A stretch of DNA of 64,000 nucleotides from Methanobacteriota archaeon (GTDB lineage: Archaea; Thermoplasmatota; E2; DHVEG-1). The position numbers and the translations under genes are program-made. Positions 3,231 through 23,175 of the stretch are shown here, one piece after another; the stretch's first letter is position 1, and the number at the start of each line of letters is the position of its first letter. The stretch lies in assembly GCA_963769885.1 (NCBI GenBank), contig CAVYNH010000004.1, positions 192,001-256,000 of the forward strand, read 5' to 3'. A model generated the notes under the pieces. That model was not told the origin of the DNA. It saw only the letters and a list, made by a program, of their open reading frames with translations, and made no database searches.

Positions 3231-5390
3231 TCATTGAAGAATCTGCACTCGGAAATGCCATAGAATCCCGATATGGTCCAGGAGCCAGTGTAATAGAGGA
3301 AACACGGGTCGTTCGACGATGAACGGCATCCGGACATGGAGGCTCCCCCAGTCGCTTTCGACGCCGTACACATCCCGGGCTTTGCATCTAATCGTATAGG
3401 CACCACGTTTCGCCCAGGTATGGGCGATGGTTTGGATCTGCCCAGAAGGAAATGGTCCGATCCAGCCACTCGTAGTATTGTCTCCCCAGTCGATGAAATA
3501 GGAGAGGGTATCGTTGTTTGAATCGGTTGCGACCACCGTATAGTTGTAAGACCTGCCTGGTTTTCCGGTCGCGGGCCCGTCAATGGTTGGGGTCGTTGGT
3601 GGGATGTTGTCTCCGGCAATGAACGCCCAGGTGGAGTCGCAGGCGATGATACCCACGCCGTCAGTGACCGTGAGGGTGACGGTGTAGTTTCCGGCGGTGT
3701 GGTAGGTGTGGGTGGGGTTCTGCTCGTCAGATGTCGCGCCGTCGCCGAAGGTCCAGTGGTACTGATAGGGTGGTGTGCCGTTCTCGGCTGATCCGGTGAA
3801 GTGGAGGGGGGTTTCGACGGCGCCATGATAGGGGCCGTGGGCGTGGGCGATGCAGCCGCCGATGATCGTGAAGTCTGCGGGGGAGATGGCGGTGGCGCTG
3901 GTGGTGCTGGTGGTGACCGTGATTTTGACGCGGCAGTGGGTTGATCCGGTGCCAGCGACGAGCCATTGGTAGCAGCCGTTGTCTAGCAGATCCGTGGCAA
4001 TGGGATACCAGGGTCCTGAAGGACCAGTGAGGGAATAGAAGAGGTCGACTGTGGCATCGCCTTGGGCTAGGGGGACGGCGGAAAGCCAACGGATGTTGCG
4101 GATGGCGTTGCCAGTGAAGGTTTCACCGCCGTAAGGGGATCTGAGGTGGACCGACAATGCGGTCGGCTCTTGCCAAGGGGAGATGGCGCATAGGACGTTG
4201 TGCGATTGTTCGATGACGAAGATGACGTCTTCGCGGCCGTCGTGGTCGAAGTCGCCGTCGACGCGCAACATGACGCAGTCTCCGGTCATGAAGAAGGTAG
4301 CATCGGCAGACCAGTATCCTGTACCGTAACCGAGGTAGACTTGGGCGACGTTGGTGGTAAAGGTCATGATGTCTAGGTATCCGTCGGCGTTGAGGTCGCC
4401 GCATTGAACGCGGTAGTCTCCGGTTGTCGGGAGGCCGGTGGAGGCTTGGGTCCAGGTGTTATTGTTTTTATGGTAGAGGTAGGCGCGGACGCCTTGGTTG
4501 TCGTAGGAGATGGCGAGGTCGTCGGTGCCGTCGTTATTGAGGTCGCCGTGATCGAGGCCGACGGCGACGGCGGTGGGGAGTCCGTTTTGGCTGAGGGTGA
4601 AGTTGAAGTGGCCGTCGCCGAGGTAGACGTTGGTGTTGTATTTAGTCCCGATGAAGTCCATGTTTCCGTCGGCGTTGATGTCGCAGGTTTTGAGGTCGTC
4701 GTTGGTGTTGTCGATGGTGTTGGTCCATTTGTGGGTCCAGGTGCCGTTGCCGTTGTTTTTGTAGACGTGGTAGCCGTTGCCGTAGCCGAAGGATTGGCTG
4801 ACGAGGTCGAGGAGGCCGTCGTTGTTGAAGTCGGCGAAGTCGGTGGCGCCCATGCCCCAGGTTTCGCCGCCTGTTCCGAGTCCGGTGGCCCAGCCGGTCC
4901 AGTTGATGCCGGTGCCGTCGCCGAGGGCGGCGCCGATGAGGGTGTCGCCGAAGCCGGGTGTTGAGCTGTAGTCGTGGTGGATGCCCCAGGCGATGTCGGG
5001 GTGGCCGTCAAGGTTGAGGTCGCCGATGGCGCAGCCGCCGTAGCCGAAGTCGCCGGTTTGGTGGATGGTCCAGGTGCCGGTGCCGTCGCCGAGCCAGGCC
5101 ATGATGCCGTGTTCTTGGGTGTTGATGTAGGGGTTGCCGTGGTCGCCGACGCTGAGGATGTCGAGGTGGCCGTCTTGGTTGATGTCGGCGAGTTCGACTT
5201 CCATGGGGCCGCCGTCAAGGCTGGGGGTGTTGAGGCCGGTGGATTTGGGGATGAAGGTGAGTTGGTTCGAGGAGGGGCGTGCCCCGGCGTTGGATGATCG
5301 GGCGGTCCAAGGGGTCAGAGATGTTGAGCAGAGGAGGATTGTTAAGACGCCCGCGAAAAGGATGCGGTGAAGCGGTGTGTGGTGGTTCAA
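3231..5390 (-). CDS. Secreted FG-GAP/VCBS beta-propeller protein with PKD domains
   Basis: Signal peptide; repeated D(I/L/F)NxDGxxD loops; PKD WTFGDG..NPTHTY and YFIDWGD; TTG start after GGGGGA. Confidence 0.9.
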   Translation of the reverse strand: MNHHTPLHRILFAGVLTILLCSTSLTPWTARSSNAGARPSSNQLTFIPKSTGLNTPSLDGGPMEVELADINQDGHLDILSVGDHGNPYINTQEHGIMAWLGDGTGTWTIHQTGDFGYGGCAIGDLNLDGHPDIAWGIHHDYSSTPGFGDTLIGAALGDGTGINWTGWATGLGTGGETWGMGATDFADFNNDGLLDLVSQSFGYGNGYHVYKNNGNGTWTHKWTNTIDNTNDDLKTCDINADGNMDFIGTKYNTNVYLGDGHFNFTLSQNGLPTAVAVGLDHGDLNNDGTDDLAISYDNQGVRAYLYHKNNNTWTQASTGLPTTGDYRVQCGDLNADGYLDIMTFTTNVAQVYLGYGTGYWSADATFFMTGDCVMLRVDGDFDHDGREDVIFVIEQSHNVLCAISPWQEPTALSVHLRSPYGGETFTGNAIRNIRWLSAVPLAQGDATVDLFYSLTGPSGPWYPIATDLLDNGCYQWLVAGTGSTHCRVKITVTTSTTSATAISPADFTIIGGCIAHAHGPYHGAVETPLHFTGSAENGTPPYQYHWTFGDGATSDEQNPTHTYHTAGNYTVTLTVTDGVGIIACDSTWAFIAGDNIPPTTPTIDGPATGKPGRSYNYTVVATDSNNDTLSYFIDWGDNTTSGWIGPFPSGQIQTIAHTWAKRGAYTIRCKARDVYGVESDWGSLHVRMPFIVERPVFPLLHWLLDHIGILWHFRVQILQ

Positions 5391-5696
5391 CCTCTGTTCC
5401 CCCGTTCAGATTCATTAGGTGGTGCCGTATTTTAATGTTGTGCTAAGGAGGGGTGGGTTATCCTTGGTTCTTTTGGTGTGGTAGTAGGTGTAACCCGAGG
5501 AAGTCAGCCTGGTTTTCGTCTGCTCGCAGGGGGAATCCGGGTCGCCGACGCAGCACAGACCGTGCCCCGGATATTCTACCATTAATTTCCTATTCCCAAT
5601 CTGTAACTTAAGTAAGTCTCGCTATTCAAAACTATGTTAGAAGGAATTCTATATTATTATATCTGCAAGAAATAGAAATGACGTATGAAGGATGAA

Positions 5697-5724
5697 AAAA
5701 GCGCAGGGGAAGGGATTTGAACCC
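5697..5724 (-). repeat. att-like direct repeat of the tRNA-Leu(CAA) 3' end
   Basis: aaaagcgcaggggaagggatttgaaccc vs 8022-8049 aaaagtgcaggggaagggatttgaaccc (27/28). Confidence 0.92.
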
Positions 5725-5752
5725 TTGTTTATCGGTACATAGGCGATTTTTA

Positions 5753-6601
5753 CTAGGGAACATATGTTGCTGTTGCAAGAGCTTGACCAAGGTAAAAACT
5801 TATTTTATCAAATTGATTAACGGGGAACCAAATCCTGAGTCCTTTAAAACCAATTAGCCAGTTCAAATTATCATTTATTGATTGCAACCCTTTTAATCCG
5901 AAAGACACCCCTCGGTAGCCGGAATTAATTGTTACCACTGTCCACAGTAAAAGAGGGCTAAACAAATTGAAAATCAACGAAGGAATCCCTACGACAGCAG
6001 ACAGTAATAATGGAATAGCCACCAACATTGCAAGATTAAGATTATTAAAATGAAACATCCCATAGGTAAAAAGCATAAAAAGAATTATCATAGGTAAAGT
6101 CAGCAACCCAAATATTACATCATTTCCTGCTAACACCGAATACATGGACAGCAAACAAAAGACATTGCTAAACGCTAAATGAAATTGAGAAAACCTAAGA
6201 GAGCCCACCAGTTTTTCAACAGCAGGATGAACTTGATCTGCCGTCACCAACTTCTGTGCCTTTTCAACACTCATACCTTTTGGCAATAGACCATACTTAT
6301 TGAACTCCACGACTGCTTCCTTGAAGATAGGAACCGCTTCTTCCCTGGTTGTCGTCTGGTTCAATCGTGCTTTGAAATCAACAAGATACTGCTGTAGGTT
6401 CTGATACTGTTGCCTGGTGAGTTTCACAGTGGTATCCCCAAATCCCTGGATACCACAGGCTTGAGTAGTCACTTCAACAAGGTCATTAGTTAGTGATGCT
6501 TTGGCCACATTGAAGTTGATGCTTGGTGCGACTGCAACACCAATGAACAAAAGAATGATACCAATTGCAGAACATTTCCCAATCAGAGGATATTTTTTCA
6601 T
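5753..6601 (-). CDS. Hypothetical exported/membrane protein
   Basis: 282-aa ORF; N-terminal signal-like segment, helical middle, hydrophobic C-terminal half; AT-richer codon usage. Confidence 0.8.
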   Translation of the reverse strand: MKKYPLIGKCSAIGIILLFIGVAVAPSINFNVAKASLTNDLVEVTTQACGIQGFGDTTVKLTRQQYQNLQQYLVDFKARLNQTTTREEAVPIFKEAVVEFNKYGLLPKGMSVEKAQKLVTADQVHPAVEKLVGSLRFSQFHLAFSNVFCLLSMYSVLAGNDVIFGLLTLPMIILFMLFTYGMFHFNNLNLAMLVAIPLLLSAVVGIPSLIFNLFSPLLLWTVVTINSGYRGVSFGLKGLQSINDNLNWLIGFKGLRIWFPVNQFDKISFYLGQALATATYVP

Positions 6602-6741
6602 CTATTCTGCCCCATTTGAAAATGAAGAATACTTCTCTATTTAAAATCTCCGTTAACGTGATTTCTCCAGAAATGAACCGGTATTTCGGAGTTCAAATCA
6701 TTTTTTTGTATTCTAGAATTCTTCTCCAGTAAAAATAAGAA

Positions 6742-6768
6742 AAAAGTGCAGGGGAAGTGATACCAACC
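6742..6768 (-). repeat. Degenerate second copy of the tRNA-Leu 3' end
   Basis: aaaagtgcaggggaagtgataccaacc; first 16 nt identical to 8022-8037; 23/27 overall. Confidence 0.8.
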
Positions 6769-6893
6769 TCAAGTTTAAATCTCACGGATCCGTGGGGGGG
6801 TACCTGGTTCCCTCCTAGTGGATTGTTCAATATTGGCCTGTTCTTTGGTTTGTTGAGCAAAGCGGGACTGCTCGTCTTAAATCAGCGAAACAA

Positions 6894-6916
6894 GGGACCG
6901 AGGGTGATTTGAACCC
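6894..6916 (-). repeat. tRNA 3'-end-like motif with a different acceptor strand (CGGTCCC)
   Basis: Reverse complement GGGTTCAAATCACCCTCGGTCCC: T-loop plus acceptor-like 3' strand. Confidence 0.55.
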
Positions 6917-7020
6917 ATCTCATATATCCGATATAGTAAAACCCAAAACAACCAAATCAGAATGAACTTCAGCCTTAAAAAAACGACAGGCACAATAAGA
7001 ATTTGTTGGAAGTGCAGAAC

Positions 7021-7785
7021 ATGAACGAGAATGCGTTGTACGAGGCTATTTTCAAACGAAAATCGGTTAGAGATTATGACCCAACGCCCATTGACTCCAA
7101 GCCCCTCGAAGAGATTTCAACGAATTTGCAGTCCTTAAAGCCAATGGTGACAGGGATTAAGACAGAGTTCAGGATTATTTCGCCAAATCAAGTAACCAGA
7201 AAGTTTAGCAACAAAGCGCCCCACTTCATTGCGGCGTTCTCAGAAGCAAAAGACGCTTACAAAGTCAATATTGGGTTTATGCTTCAACAAATGGACCTTT
7301 ATTTCTCGTCGAATGGGTTAGGCAGTTGTTGGTTGGGGATTCCGCAACCGACCAAAGACGTGGTAGATTCTTCAGATCTTGAGTTTATTATTCTGATGTC
7401 ATTCGTAAATTCAAAAGAAACACTTCACAGGACGAACGTTTCGGAGTTCAAAAGAAAGCTCCTTTCGGATATTACCAACATCAAAGATGCTGACGAGTTG
7501 TTAGAACCAGCTCGTCTTGCTCCGTCAGCGGTAAACATGCAGAACTGGTATTTTACTGGCAATAAGAGCGCAATCCATGCCTATTCAAACAGGGCTGGAT
7601 TTCCTATTACTTTCGTTGGGGGAAGTTATTATCCTGTCAACATGGGCATTGCTCTTTACCATTTGCAGCTAGCGGGACAGCACTTTGGGTGGAAAACCAA
7701 ATTCGTCTTCGACAAGTCAAAAGATAAAAGTCCCCCTAAGAATCTGGATTACGTTGCAACCGTAGAGAGGGCATTTAACCTATAG
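7021..7785 (+). CDS. Nitroreductase family protein (two domains)
   Basis: IFKRKSVRDY, LGSCWLG, ARLAPSAVNMQNW, GIALYH. Confidence 0.9.
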   Translation: MNENALYEAIFKRKSVRDYDPTPIDSKPLEEISTNLQSLKPMVTGIKTEFRIISPNQVTRKFSNKAPHFIAAFSEAKDAYKVNIGFMLQQMDLYFSSNGLGSCWLGIPQPTKDVVDSSDLEFIILMSFVNSKETLHRTNVSEFKRKLLSDITNIKDADELLEPARLAPSAVNMQNWYFTGNKSAIHAYSNRAGFPITFVGGSYYPVNMGIALYHLQLAGQHFGWKTKFVFDKSKDKSPPKNLDYVATVERAFNL

Positions 7786-7790
7786 TGAAA

Positions 7791-7810
7791 TGCCCAGGGC
7801 GGGTATTTGA
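7791..7810 (-). repeat. tRNA 3'-end-like motif (acceptor strand CCTGGGC-A)
   Basis: Reverse complement TCAAATACCCGCCCTGGGCA. Confidence 0.45.
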
Positions 7811-7844
7811 TTTTAAGTCATCCAGACAAGAAAAAAGAATCAGA

Positions 7845-7869
7845 GTGCCGCAGGAGGGGATACTGAGCC
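7845..7869 (-). repeat. Degenerate tRNA 3'-end-like motif (acceptor strand CTGCGGC-A)
   Basis: Reverse complement GGCTCAGTATCCCCTCCTGCGGCAC followed by a T-rich tract. Confidence 0.4.
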
Positions 7870-8026
7870 GGGTTAAATACCCCCGTCCTATTATAGCTGA
7901 ATCTGTGTGGGTCTGGAGGCAGCTATAGGAGGTTTTTTTCAGACTGAAAGGTTCAAATCTCTTTTTTTAACCACAATAGCATTCATTGTGGTTTCACTAA
8001 GGTTTTCTCCTGTAGAACGGTAAAAG

Positions 8027-8111
8027 TGCAGGGGAAGGGATTTGAACCCCCGAACCTCTACAGGAACAGATCTTGAGTCTGTCGCCGTTGACCGAGCTTG
8101 GCTACCCCTGC
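8027..8111 (-). tRNA. tRNA-Leu(CAA)
   Basis: Acceptor GCAGGGG/CCCCTGC + A; anticodon arm ACAGA-CTCAAGA-TCTGT; long variable arm; GGTTCAAATC T-loop; CCA not encoded. Confidence 0.97.
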
Positions 8112-8239
8112 ACTCTCCACCGTCAATCCATCGAACCATAATAAATATTTAGGTAAACACCCACCAGCAGACAAATACAATCAAAAATCCTTTTAAACCA
8201 ACAACAAGCTACCATCCCCCAACCAAAACGAGGAGACGG

Positions 8240-9262
8240 GTGAGAACCATCGAAACCAAAACCATCGGAGTACTCTCCAGCGGCGGCGACGCCCCCGGCA
8301 TGAACGCCGCCCTCCGCGCCATCGTCAGAACCGCACTCAACTACGGCCACACCCTCTACGGCATCAGACGCGGCTACGAAGGCCTCATCAACGACAACCT
8401 CGAACCCCTCACCCACTACTCCGTCAGCAACATCATCAAAAACGGCGGCACCATCATCCAAACCGCCCGCAGCCCCGAATTCCTCACCCCACAAGGACGA
8501 CAAAAAGCCTACGACACCATTAAAAAACACGGCATCACCAGCCTCATCGTCATCGGCGGCGACGGCAGTTTCCACGGACTCCACGAACTCATCCTCGAAC
8601 ACGGCATCCAAGGAATCGGCGTCCCCGGCACCATCGACAACAACCTCTATGGCACCGACTACACCATCGGCTTCGACACCGCAGTCAACACCGCCCTCGA
8701 CGCCATCGACAAAATCCGCGACACCGCCACCAGCCATAGCAGGCTCTTCATCATCGAAGTCATGGGGCACACCTCCGGTTACATCGCCCTCTACACCGGC
8801 GTCGGCGGCGGTGCTGAGGAAATCGTCCTCCCCGAATCCCCCGTTGACCTCAGCAAAATCTGGGCACGCCTCAACATGGGACGCGCCCACGGCAAAAAAA
8901 GCAGCATCGTCGTCGTCGCCGAGGGAGAACGCACCGGCGGCGCCGCAGCCGTCAAAGCCCACATCGAAAAATACAGCGACTGGGAAGTCAAAGTCAGCAT
9001 CCTGGGCCACATCCAACGCGGCGGCGACCCCACCGCCTTCGACCGCCTCCTCGCCAGCAGACTCGGCTACGAGGCAGTCTACGCCATCATGCGCAACGAG
9101 ACCGACAAAATGGTCGGCATCATCGATAAAACCGTCACTCTCACCCCACTGGCCGATACCTGGACGAAGAAAAAAGAACTCGACCTCTCCTACCTCTCCA
9201 TGAATGACATGCTTTCTTCGTACCATGAACCGCTTCAACAGACGAGCCGAATCATGATATAG
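8240..9262 (+). CDS. pfkA: ATP-dependent 6-phosphofructokinase (bacterial PfkA family)
   Basis: SGGDAPGMNAA, IGGDGS, PGTIDN, TIGFDTA, EVMG, LGHIQRGG. Confidence 0.95.
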   Translation: MRTIETKTIGVLSSGGDAPGMNAALRAIVRTALNYGHTLYGIRRGYEGLINDNLEPLTHYSVSNIIKNGGTIIQTARSPEFLTPQGRQKAYDTIKKHGITSLIVIGGDGSFHGLHELILEHGIQGIGVPGTIDNNLYGTDYTIGFDTAVNTALDAIDKIRDTATSHSRLFIIEVMGHTSGYIALYTGVGGGAEEIVLPESPVDLSKIWARLNMGRAHGKKSSIVVVAEGERTGGAAAVKAHIEKYSDWEVKVSILGHIQRGGDPTAFDRLLASRLGYEAVYAIMRNETDKMVGIIDKTVTLTPLADTWTKKKELDLSYLSMNDMLSSYHEPLQQTSRIMI

Positions 9263-9413
9263 GCGAGCAGGCGCGGGCACCCATGGCGGACCAAGTGAAC
9301 ATAGAGGGCGTCCCGATACAGCTTCTCAACCAGTTTCTTTGCCATAAGAAGCACAGTGCCCCCAGGACTATAAATATCCTCGAAATACGTTCGGCCACAA
9401 CCAAACAAACCCA

Positions 9414-22176: not shown

Positions 22177-23175
22177 ATGAGCGCACCACACCCAAAACCA
22201 GCCTCTTCTAAACCCACCGTCGCCCTCTACTGGGCGGCCAGCTGCGGCGGCTGCGAAATCGCCATGCTCGACCTCGACGAAAAAATCCTCGACGTCGTCA
22301 ACGCCGTCGACCTCATCTTCTGGCCCGTCGCCCTCGACACCAAATACAAAGAAATCGAGGCCATGCCGGACCACAGCATCGACGTGTGCCTCTTCAACGG
22401 CGCCATCCGCACCACGGAAAACGAACACATGGCAAAACTCCTGCGCAAAAAAGCCAAAATCCTCATCGCCTTCGGCGCCTGCGCAGTCTCTGGCGGCATC
22501 CCCGGCCTCTCCAACCTCACCACCAAAAAGGACACCCTCACCACTGCCTACCTCGACAACCCCAGCACCCCCAACCCCACCAAGACACTCCCACAACCCC
22601 ATACGAAAGCCAAAGAAGGCGACCTCACCATCCCAGACCTCTACGAAACAGTCAAAACCCTTGACCAAACCGTCCCCGTCGACTACTACCTCCCCGGCTG
22701 CCCCCCACCCACTGACCTCATCCTCAACGCCCTCACCGCCATCACCACTAACACACTCCCAGAAAAAGGAACCGTCCTCGCCCCCTTGAAATCCGTCTGC
22801 GATGAATGCCGCTTCAAAAAAACCGATAAGAAAATGACCACCATCACCAGAATCCAAGACCTCGACCACACCCCCGACTCCTGCCTCCTCGACCACGGCC
22901 TCATCTGCCTCGGACCCGCCACCCGCGGCGGCTGCAAAGGACGCTGCATCGACGCCAACGCCCCCTGCACCGGCTGCGGCGGACTCCTCCCCAACAGCCT
23001 CGACCAGGGCGCCGCCATGATCACCGCCCTCGCCAGCCTCCTCGGAATCGAGACGGAAGACAAAACCACAGACCACGACCTCGACATCCTCCTCGCCAAG
23101 ATCCAGGACCTCGCCGGCACCTTCTACAAATACACCCTCCCAGCCTCCCTCATCAACAAGCGGAGGACCCCATGA
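22177..23175 (+). CDS. mvhG: F420-non-reducing [NiFe] hydrogenase small subunit
   Basis: SCGGC, FGACA..GGIPGL, PGCPP, VCDEC, CLGPATRGGC..C..CTGC; alternative start 22162. Confidence 0.92.
   Translation: MSAPHPKPASSKPTVALYWAASCGGCEIAMLDLDEKILDVVNAVDLIFWPVALDTKYKEIEAMPDHSIDVCLFNGAIRTTENEHMAKLLRKKAKILIAFGACAVSGGIPGLSNLTTKKDTLTTAYLDNPSTPNPTKTLPQPHTKAKEGDLTIPDLYETVKTLDQTVPVDYYLPGCPPPTDLILNALTAITTNTLPEKGTVLAPLKSVCDECRFKKTDKKMTTITRIQDLDHTPDSCLLDHGLICLGPATRGGCKGRCIDANAPCTGCGGLLPNSLDQGAAMITALASLLGIETEDKTTDHDLDILLAKIQDLAGTFYKYTLPASLINKRRTP

Follow-up and report, generated by a model that had tools for sequence, protein, structure and literature searches.

Probable array of two integrase-less gene cassettes behind a tRNA-Leu gene of an archaeon

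Directly behind the gene for tRNA-Leu(CAA) in the genome of an uncultured sediment archaeon (Methanobacteriota, in GTDB Thermoplasmatota; G000; 2.09 Mb, 7 contigs) lies a small islet of two genes, a nitroreductase and a 282-residue membrane protein, each enclosed in a unit that ends in a copy of the tRNA's 3' tail; together the two units probably form a short array of mobile cassettes. The window analyzed, that is, the whole stretch of 64,000 nt, corresponds to C4:192001-256000, and positions without a contig number refer to it. The islet itself (5590-8025) has a guanine-plus-cytosine (GC) content of 36-46% (~40% overall), compared with ~60% in the flanking core genes, and is bordered by an FG-GAP/PKD gene (3231-5390) and by a phosphofructokinase (PFK) gene (8240-9262). 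A profile search identifies the genome as archaeal, with six TBP-domain matches and none to sigma-70. In the following list and throughout, O is the 23-nt core, P the non-tRNA arm and P' the leader; m1-m5 are five tRNA-tail-like motifs claimed by a first-pass annotation, G001 is the sister species and L099 a metagenome contig.

5701..6745, minus strand: unit 2, membrane-protein cassette closed by core O (m1); leader shared with relatives' cassettes
5701..5724, minus strand: m1, terminal Leu core O; 23/24 to the tRNA tail, one base off, followed by TTTTTT
5753..6601, minus strand: gene for the 282-aa protein, cargo of unit 2 (from translation)
6637..6646, minus strand: TATA-like box (TTTTAAATAG), ~35 nt upstream of the 282-aa start codon; conserved block in the leader alignment
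6678..6707, plus strand: inverted copy of a truncated P arm and T-loop, with its own T-run, in the unit 2 leader; kept in 11 leaders
6746..8025, minus strand: unit 1, nitroreductase cassette adjoining the tRNA; O-to-O homology with the G001 and L099 copies
6746..6768, minus strand: m2, variant Leu core O closing unit 1; 19/23, variant GGTTGGTATCAC..., with a T-run at 6740-6745
6894..6916, minus strand: m3, T-loop plus Ala-like acceptor motif inside unit 1; perfect T-loop 10-mer
7018..7785, plus strand: TM1586-type nitroreductase, 255 aa; Pfam PF14512, E 2.9e-44; alternative TTG start at 7003
7791..7810, minus strand: m4, claimed tRNA-like motif, treated as ordinary spacer
7845..7861, minus strand: m5, tRNA-Phe(GAA) 3'-end relic inside unit 1; 17/17 to the tRNA-Phe at C5:65008
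7950..7968, plus strand: inverted T-loop-like motif with T-run in the unit 1 leader, read from the sequence; among GGTTCAAATC sites
8003..8012, minus strand: CAGGAGAAAA motif, 14 nt past the 3' end of tRNA-Leu(CAA); also found after tRNA-Pro(CGG), its remnants and some Glu remnants
8026..8111, minus strand: intact tRNA-Leu(CAA); ARAGORN, Rfam tRNA model 52 bits
8026-8048, minus strand: core O of tRNA-Leu(CAA), its last 23 nt; attB-like anchor of the array

Starting from the tRNA, unit 1 consists of leader P', m5, m4, the nitroreductase gene (antisense to tRNA-Leu(CAA)), m3, a variant P arm and the variant core m2. In the sister species, a 1.31-kb segment (G001:C1:449-1759) matches window positions 8050-6743 site to site at 93% nucleotide identity, spanning the first base of the tRNA core to the last base of m2 with m3-m5 included, and encodes a nitroreductase 94% identical to that of G000. 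This copy sits on a different contig from the G001 CAA locus: upstream of it is the arm of another cassette, with no tRNA, and downstream another small gene precedes the orthologue of G000 C7:512748-513456 (89% identity), which in G000 constitutes the far flank of the tRNA-Leu(TAA) array, so that in G001 the nitroreductase unit resides at a different tRNA-Leu locus. A third copy, 95% identical, is found behind yet another arm on the 1.2-kb contig L099; in the other copies of the unit, homology begins at window position 8050. Judged by these alignments, the nitroreductase unit is one module with fixed O-to-O limits, present in three contexts and at two tRNA-Leu loci, and the first-pass suggestion that units move between tRNA loci finds its example here, in the unit's position at CAA in G000 and in the TAA array of G001. 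None of 79 other metagenomic nitroreductase homologues (≤79% identity) has a Leu core nearby; cassettes thus carry the gene in this genus alone, and in other places it is an ordinary gene; a search for further metagenome contigs encoding the locus returned one near-identical contig or nothing.

The first-pass annotation had regarded all five motifs downstream of the tRNA as tRNA-tail-like, the last three tentatively, each followed by a T-rich tract and each marking a junction. Two of them, m1 and m2, are Leu copies. The former, whose P arm lies at about 5725-5745, probably holds the original tail of tRNA-Leu(CAA); the latter is real, but its proposed start at 6742 takes in part of the T-run and the core begins at 6746. 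The m2 variant, with the same flank upstream, is seen again at C4:114720 and in the G001 copy, and hence represents a conserved site type rather than random decay. The remaining three are fixed internal parts of the nitroreductase unit: only Leu-type cores are active and bound units, so the islet contains two units and not five. As for their origin, an end-anchored 17-mer match of the m5 type is expected ~0.01 times genome-wide (rough calculation) and the motif is kept at 16/17 positions in both the G001 and the L099 copies; by this match, m5 is derived from tRNA-Phe. The tail of m3 matches G000 tRNA tails at 8/12 positions at best (P 0.04-0.09) and the whole motif matches tRNA-Ala(TGC) at 18/23 in a hand alignment; the three copies of the unit (G000, G001 and L099) carry it unchanged, and it has no match with ≤2 mismatches in the tRNAs of the 108 genomes (40 genera) of the family comparison set. 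Its T-loop 10-mer occurs at 37 sites genome-wide, 18 of them in tRNAs and ~10 in Leu remnants, with 6.9 expected by chance, and m3 is plausibly the relic of a tRNA whose donor was not found. In the case of m4, a tRNA origin is not supported: with ≤2 mismatches it has no match in the 108 genomes, and the G001 and L099 copies each depart from it at 3-4 bases. The idea that units carry the tail of a former host tRNA accordingly survives for m5 and perhaps m3, but not for m4, and T-runs follow m1 and m2 directly and m5 after 8 nt, but are weak after m3 and m4.

The protein encoded by unit 2 begins with a signal or anchor, is hydrophobic in its C-terminal half and has no match in Pfam. Homologues are present in 51 of the 197 genomes of a class-wide set, with up to 12 matches counted per genome, and one from another genus (G106) is 75% identical; by these counts, the protein belongs to a large family of paralogs specific to the lineage. 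Cassettes in G113, G123, G107 and G106 share with unit 2 the leader, promoter and signal-peptide region, and many cassettes of the family have a common 170-nt leader with a TATA-like box, followed by signal-peptide codons; the box at 6637..6646 looks like the cassette's own putative promoter. The inverted arm copy at 6678..6707 is found in leaders of the same family across genera (loci L023, L025, L073, L075, L077 and L080) and may have been left behind by an ancient inversion between sites. A role for this copy as a hairpin partner of the core was considered and discarded: it occurs at only 15 of 105 scanned cores, 11 of which are leaders of one gene family, and is therefore not a general feature of the site.

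Beyond the islet, four tRNA-Leu genes of G000 (CAA, GAG, CAG and the intron-bearing TAA) have a common 23-nt tail, and all four carry stacks of one or two units. The tRNA-Leu(TAG) gene, which has the same T-loop, other stems and differences at 3 of the 23 core positions, carries no stack. Such a distribution points to a specific 23-nt tRNA-Leu tail as the target, not to a generic T-arm. Upstream of each core is a conserved non-tRNA arm of 20-55 nt, either a GTCGTACCGGTAAAC-like block or a second, 55-nt type; both types are common to several genera irrespective of cargo, which argues for a putative protein-binding site. The combined arm and core pattern (P-O) was detected in 56 of the 108 family genomes and 21 of the 40 genera, with 0 matches for a reversed control, and exact P-O matches among GTDB species representatives come nearly all from metagenome-assembled genomes (MAGs) of Thermoplasmata. 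Arrays reach five or more units, and one in the relative G080 begins at tRNA-Leu(TAA).

A survey of 47 units with 55 open reading frames (ORFs; threshold 90 aa) gave a median length of 1010 nt. Exactly one ORF of ≥90 aa is present in 35 of the 47 units, in line with the first-pass description of single-gene, integrase-less units stacked behind a tRNA; units measure ~1 kb throughout, and a single intact gene fills 60-97% of the unit. Most ORFs (39/55) are co-oriented with the site and 16/55 are antisense to the array; together with the conserved TATA-like box of the leaders, the antisense ORFs would argue against a common promoter of the integron Pc type. The cargo, surveyed with Pfam in 54 cassette ORFs, consists of mutually unrelated accessory genes and includes NosD/beta-helix, PKD, FG-GAP, CBM, peptidase, radical SAM, FMN reductase, Fic, UbiA, PAS and nitroreductase families; no integrase is found among the 25 of 41 matched families that were listed.

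Whole units also recur elsewhere. A unit with an M14 carboxypeptidase gene is present in two arrays of G000, with DNA 83% identical and homology ending exactly at the last base of the core, and a whole-unit copy exists in another genus. At the CAA locus itself, the flanks of G000 and G001 are syntenic (76% identity on the PFK side and 74% on the FG-GAP side), and the DNA between them shares only the tRNA tail, the contents being entirely different; the segment is not gained or lost as one block, the outcome that the first-pass annotation had named as speaking against its proposal. The same two flanking genes show a very strong local strand skew in G000, with GC skew to -0.44 over the PFK gene (8200-9300) and to +0.43 over the FG-GAP gene (3400-5300). 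A stack of three Leu cores without a tRNA-Leu at its head was seen beside an Endo_dU gene (C6:290455-292370, L001); its anchor may have been lost or rearranged.

A scan downstream of other tRNAs, where the first-pass annotation anticipated similar stacks, revealed these at Leu GAG, CAG and TAA and also at tRNA-Glu(CTC) and tRNA-Pro(CGG). Behind the tRNA-Glu(CTC) gene (C6:3273-25197, L010), its last 13-17 nt recur as eight co-oriented copies that delimit units of 1-7 kb, with no integrase match in that interval and a Leu-like tail 67 nt after the Glu copy at 22257. Two downstream tail copies accompany tRNA-Pro(CGG) (C1:42299-46221, L009), where a conserved junction module of ~150 nt begins with an arm of 75 nt and a core of 14 nt and continues with CTACAGGAGAAAAGTC and a hairpin plus T-run. 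The tail of tRNA-Arg(GCG) is copied 120 nt ahead of the second Pro junction. Glu and Pro arrays have their own arms, unlike the Leu P arms; this, and the unused tRNA-Leu(TAG) with its identical T-loop, speak against the earlier proposal of a recombinase that targets the conserved T-arm. A Glu-like tail is also found upstream of C4:114720, and a Leu-like one after tRNA-Met. Among the ~47 tRNA genes, eight have CAGGAG or its complement within 40 nt past the 3' end, with ~1 expected (rough calculation); the hexamer also follows several tRNA remnants and occurs in the window at 8003-8012, and CAGGAGAAA has 64 occurrences genome-wide, compared with 5-33 for shuffled 9-mers. It may be an arm site, a ribosome-binding-like motif or part of a terminator. 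Short introns (15-66 nt) interrupt the genes for tRNA-Leu(TAA) (C7:508750-508878), Leu(TAG) (C6:133054-133170), Met (C4:138424-138546), Trp (C6:517483-517625) and Tyr (C6:618985-619075), and such genes are missed or misread by a default bacterial tRNA scan.

Behind the tRNA the sequence continues with element-side DNA, an element-side arm stands in front of each remnant, and what appears to be the original trailer comes after the last one. Because this anatomy fits site-specific integration, we consider it probable, with some reserve, that the islet consists of two integrase-less integrative cassettes, arrayed by successive accretion at the tail of tRNA-Leu(CAA) and mobilized in trans, the nitroreductase unit presumably being the more recent of the two. 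Each cassette would comprise a leader with an apparent promoter of its own, usually one cargo gene, a P arm and the 23-nt O, and would transiently exist as a ~1-kb circle carrying P-O-P'. The O of the circle would recombine with that of tRNA-Leu, or of an older junction, and thereby insert the cassette directly behind the tRNA; the incoming cassette's own O would restore the tRNA, and older cassettes would be pushed outward. The enzyme would act in trans, most likely from an autonomous, integrase-bearing helper element, unbinned, that uses the same site. The sequence comparisons themselves show how the units are built, their exact O-to-O limits, the recurrence of one unit in several arrays and genomes and the specificity for the site; we infer a circular intermediate, a site-specific rather than homologous exchange and a trans-acting integrase from the arrangement of the sites.

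Several results weigh against such a mechanism. As the first-pass annotation had stated, the window contains no integrase (PF00589 search), and neither PF00589 nor PF16795 nor a resolvase gene is found in the window or at any Leu array of G000. The relatives G113 and G080, incomplete MAGs (91% and 81% complete) with 12 and 7 sites, have no PF00589 match at all, Xer-type included, and G113 also lacks a resolvase match; a recombinase lies within 1 kb of the core at only three or four of 108 loci. The best match in G000 to a 413-aa integrase that, in G075, is encoded 424 nt after a Leu O has just 28.6% identity. The P-O pattern has 0 matches in IMG/VR, where the bare core matched one terminase-bearing contig end, and no circular form or empty-site read was seen in Logan contigs, in which the sides of the joint are only 20-44 nt long and lie in repeats. 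Of the Logan runs, one is the same strain and three are wetland runs with flanks ~94% identical, which cover the repeats heavily and neither of the cassette genes; these data give no evidence for excision, circles or absence.

Among candidate enzymes, the G075 integrase is the best lead, its link to the Leu site being circumstantial; its position speaks for use of the Leu core by DNA that encodes an integrase. A 6.9-kb viral contig with a terminase large subunit (L036, IMGVR_UViG_3300031587_000020) ends in an exact tRNA-Leu core, which shows that tailed archaeal proviruses use the same attachment site; no integrase was revealed on it. G000 itself has integrase-bearing islands at tRNA-His, Arg, Gly and Pro. 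Searches for an SSV-type split integrase (PF16795) and comparisons of small ORFs across cores with Pfam gave no match. Two XerA-like recombinases (C4:123922-124917, L037, and C6:676482-677504, L038; 331 and 340 aa, 86% mutually identical) fall below the cut-off of the XerA model, each in a low-GC island next to TIR or HEPN genes, and no canonical XerA was seen in G000; located in these islands and not at the arrays, the two are unconvincing as the Leu-site recombinase. Integrase fragments in G106:C85 were set aside, being beside a Glu-like remnant and having an intact G107 homologue without a nearby core, as was a small resolvase abutting a core in G107:C94, a single, unconvincing case. The T-runs and TATA-like boxes also raised the thought of split-tRNA or expressed 3'-half genes, which was dropped since the complete tRNA genes are undamaged and mobile units are delimited by the repeats.

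The main rival explanation retains the same discrete cassettes and dispenses with a dedicated enzyme: incoming or excised DNA would enter and leave the array by homologous exchange of the Campbell type, for which O, P and leader offer 23-80 bp of common sequence. Short homologies can suffice for recombination in archaea, many cassettes have long common conserved leaders usable as homology, and the lack of a recombinase in or near most arrays, with none detected in G113, would be as expected; yet the sole sequence shared at the tRNA is the 23-nt core and the boundaries fall exactly there, P arms that remain alike from genus to genus, whatever the cargo, are more readily understood as a putative binding site, and the strict use of one tail and the separate Glu and Pro arm families look like integrase specificities. 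On these grounds we regard exchange by homology as unlikely, if worth serious attention. Less probable still is an ordinary decayed island, each unit being the last piece of a larger, integrase-bearing virus or plasmid at the tRNA. Both archaea and bacteria are known to have arrays of integrated elements that re-use a single tRNA site (PMC6563490; bioRxiv 10.1101/2020.12.28.424599), and both the integrase-bearing islands of G000 and the provirus-like contig ending in the Leu core agree with such a history; against it, the units are uniformly ~1 kb with one intact gene and no debris of integrase or replication genes was seen, and the recurrence of identical O-to-O limits in different arrays and genomes is not what independent decay would reproduce.

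Very improbable, finally, is a generic T-arm recombinase for which all five motifs are live junctions and units hop freely among different tRNAs. It would explain foreign tails inside arrays (Phe in the Leu array, Arg(GCG) in the Pro array, the Glu-like tail preceding C4:114720), the presence of Leu-like tails behind tRNA-Met and behind a Glu remnant, and a CAGGAG motif behind tRNA tails of several identities, but m3-m5 lie inside one unit in all three copies and homology never breaks at them, m4 is not tRNA-like, tRNA-Leu(TAG) is unused despite its T-loop, and P arms differ between Leu, Pro and Glu arrays.

Cassettes mobilized in trans at a tRNA-Leu tail resemble several known systems in part. 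Cis-mobilizable elements (CIMEs) of Firmicutes are att-flanked elements of several kb without integrase that derive from decayed integrative and conjugative or integrative and mobilizable elements (Pavlovic 2004; Bellanger 2011; PMC5704250). Like them, the Leu units are att-flanked, lack integrase and transfer genes, are stacked at the 3' end of a target gene and are presumably moved by the integrase of a related element; unlike them, they are uniform (0.5-1.5 kb), with one gene, an apparent promoter of their own and no decay debris, number dozens per lineage and belong to an archaeon. With attL and attR kept and integration and transfer genes absent, as the definition of a CIME formally has it, and with no transfer-gene or integrase debris among the listed Pfam families of the 54 cassette ORFs nor any parent element identified, the arrays fit the formal definition without sign of being debris.

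Integrons, archaeal ones included, and integrase-less clusters of attC sites (CALINs) are known (PMC9668308; PMC9024848). The Leu arrays share with integrons mostly single-ORF and mostly co-oriented accessory cassettes, the newest next to the anchor, that are shuffled between arrays and genomes, and with CALINs the absence of a nearby integrase. They differ in having no IntI, tRNA-tail junctions instead of attC hairpins, a live tRNA as anchor instead of attI, and apparent promoters of individual cassettes. No IntI lies next to the array, and the XerA-like genes, located elsewhere, score 67-69 bits against the integron-integrase cut-off of 265 bits; attC-like folding was rejected after 13 junctions, folded as single-stranded DNA, gave z-scores of -1.3 to +1.25 versus shuffles. 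The arrays share the logic of integrons but lack the IntI and attC that define them. To our knowledge, gene flow by one-gene modules has been described for integrons, and not for tRNA-anchored sites or archaea.

Tycheposons of Prochlorococcus make up tRNA-anchored hypervariable islands of stacked elements (bioRxiv 10.1101/2020.12.28.424599). Repeated integration at a tRNA, partial tRNAs between stacked elements and adaptive cargo are common to both; tycheposons, however, are several kb long and have a tyrosine or large serine recombinase and replication genes, neither of which the ~1-kb Leu units possess. Archaeal elements also stack at tRNA sites, one site being re-used (PMC6563490). Direct repeats of the tRNA 3' half, re-use of one site and AT-rich captured DNA link the Leu units to tRNA-integrating archaeal viruses and plasmids (PMC8371274; PMC6563490), from which they differ in lacking a partitioned or intact integrase and viral or plasmid core genes and in being modular and single-gene. 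Archaeal tRNA-integrating elements and 'gene capture' were reportedly treated by She et al. in 2001. As in tRNA-targeting elements, the insert is delimited by a directly repeated tRNA 3' end and the tRNA gene has stayed intact; an element-encoded integrase is absent. No description of such tRNA-tail cassette arrays was found in the literature searched.

It is possible, though on balance doubtful, that this lineage has a dedicated gene-capture system, functionally an integron made of other parts (a tRNA-Leu tail, a 45-80-nt P-O cassette site and cassette promoters), driven by a host or helper recombinase not yet recognizable, possibly neither a classical tyrosine nor a serine enzyme, and paralleled by Glu and Pro systems.

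In summary, with the same cassettes standing behind other tRNA-Leu genes in relatives, the cassettes appear, from sequence comparison, to act as a gene-swapping system in the manner of integrons. Two defined DNA sites are at hand for seeking the missing recombinase, and annotators may take warning that kilobase-scale islets without an integrase can still be mobile. If the proposed reading is true, part of the 'dark-matter islands' beside archaeal tRNA genes would be explained, and a large, abundant group of sediment and peat archaea would diversify its surface proteins and accessory enzymes by one-gene modules that insert behind tRNA genes and are exchanged among loci and among species.

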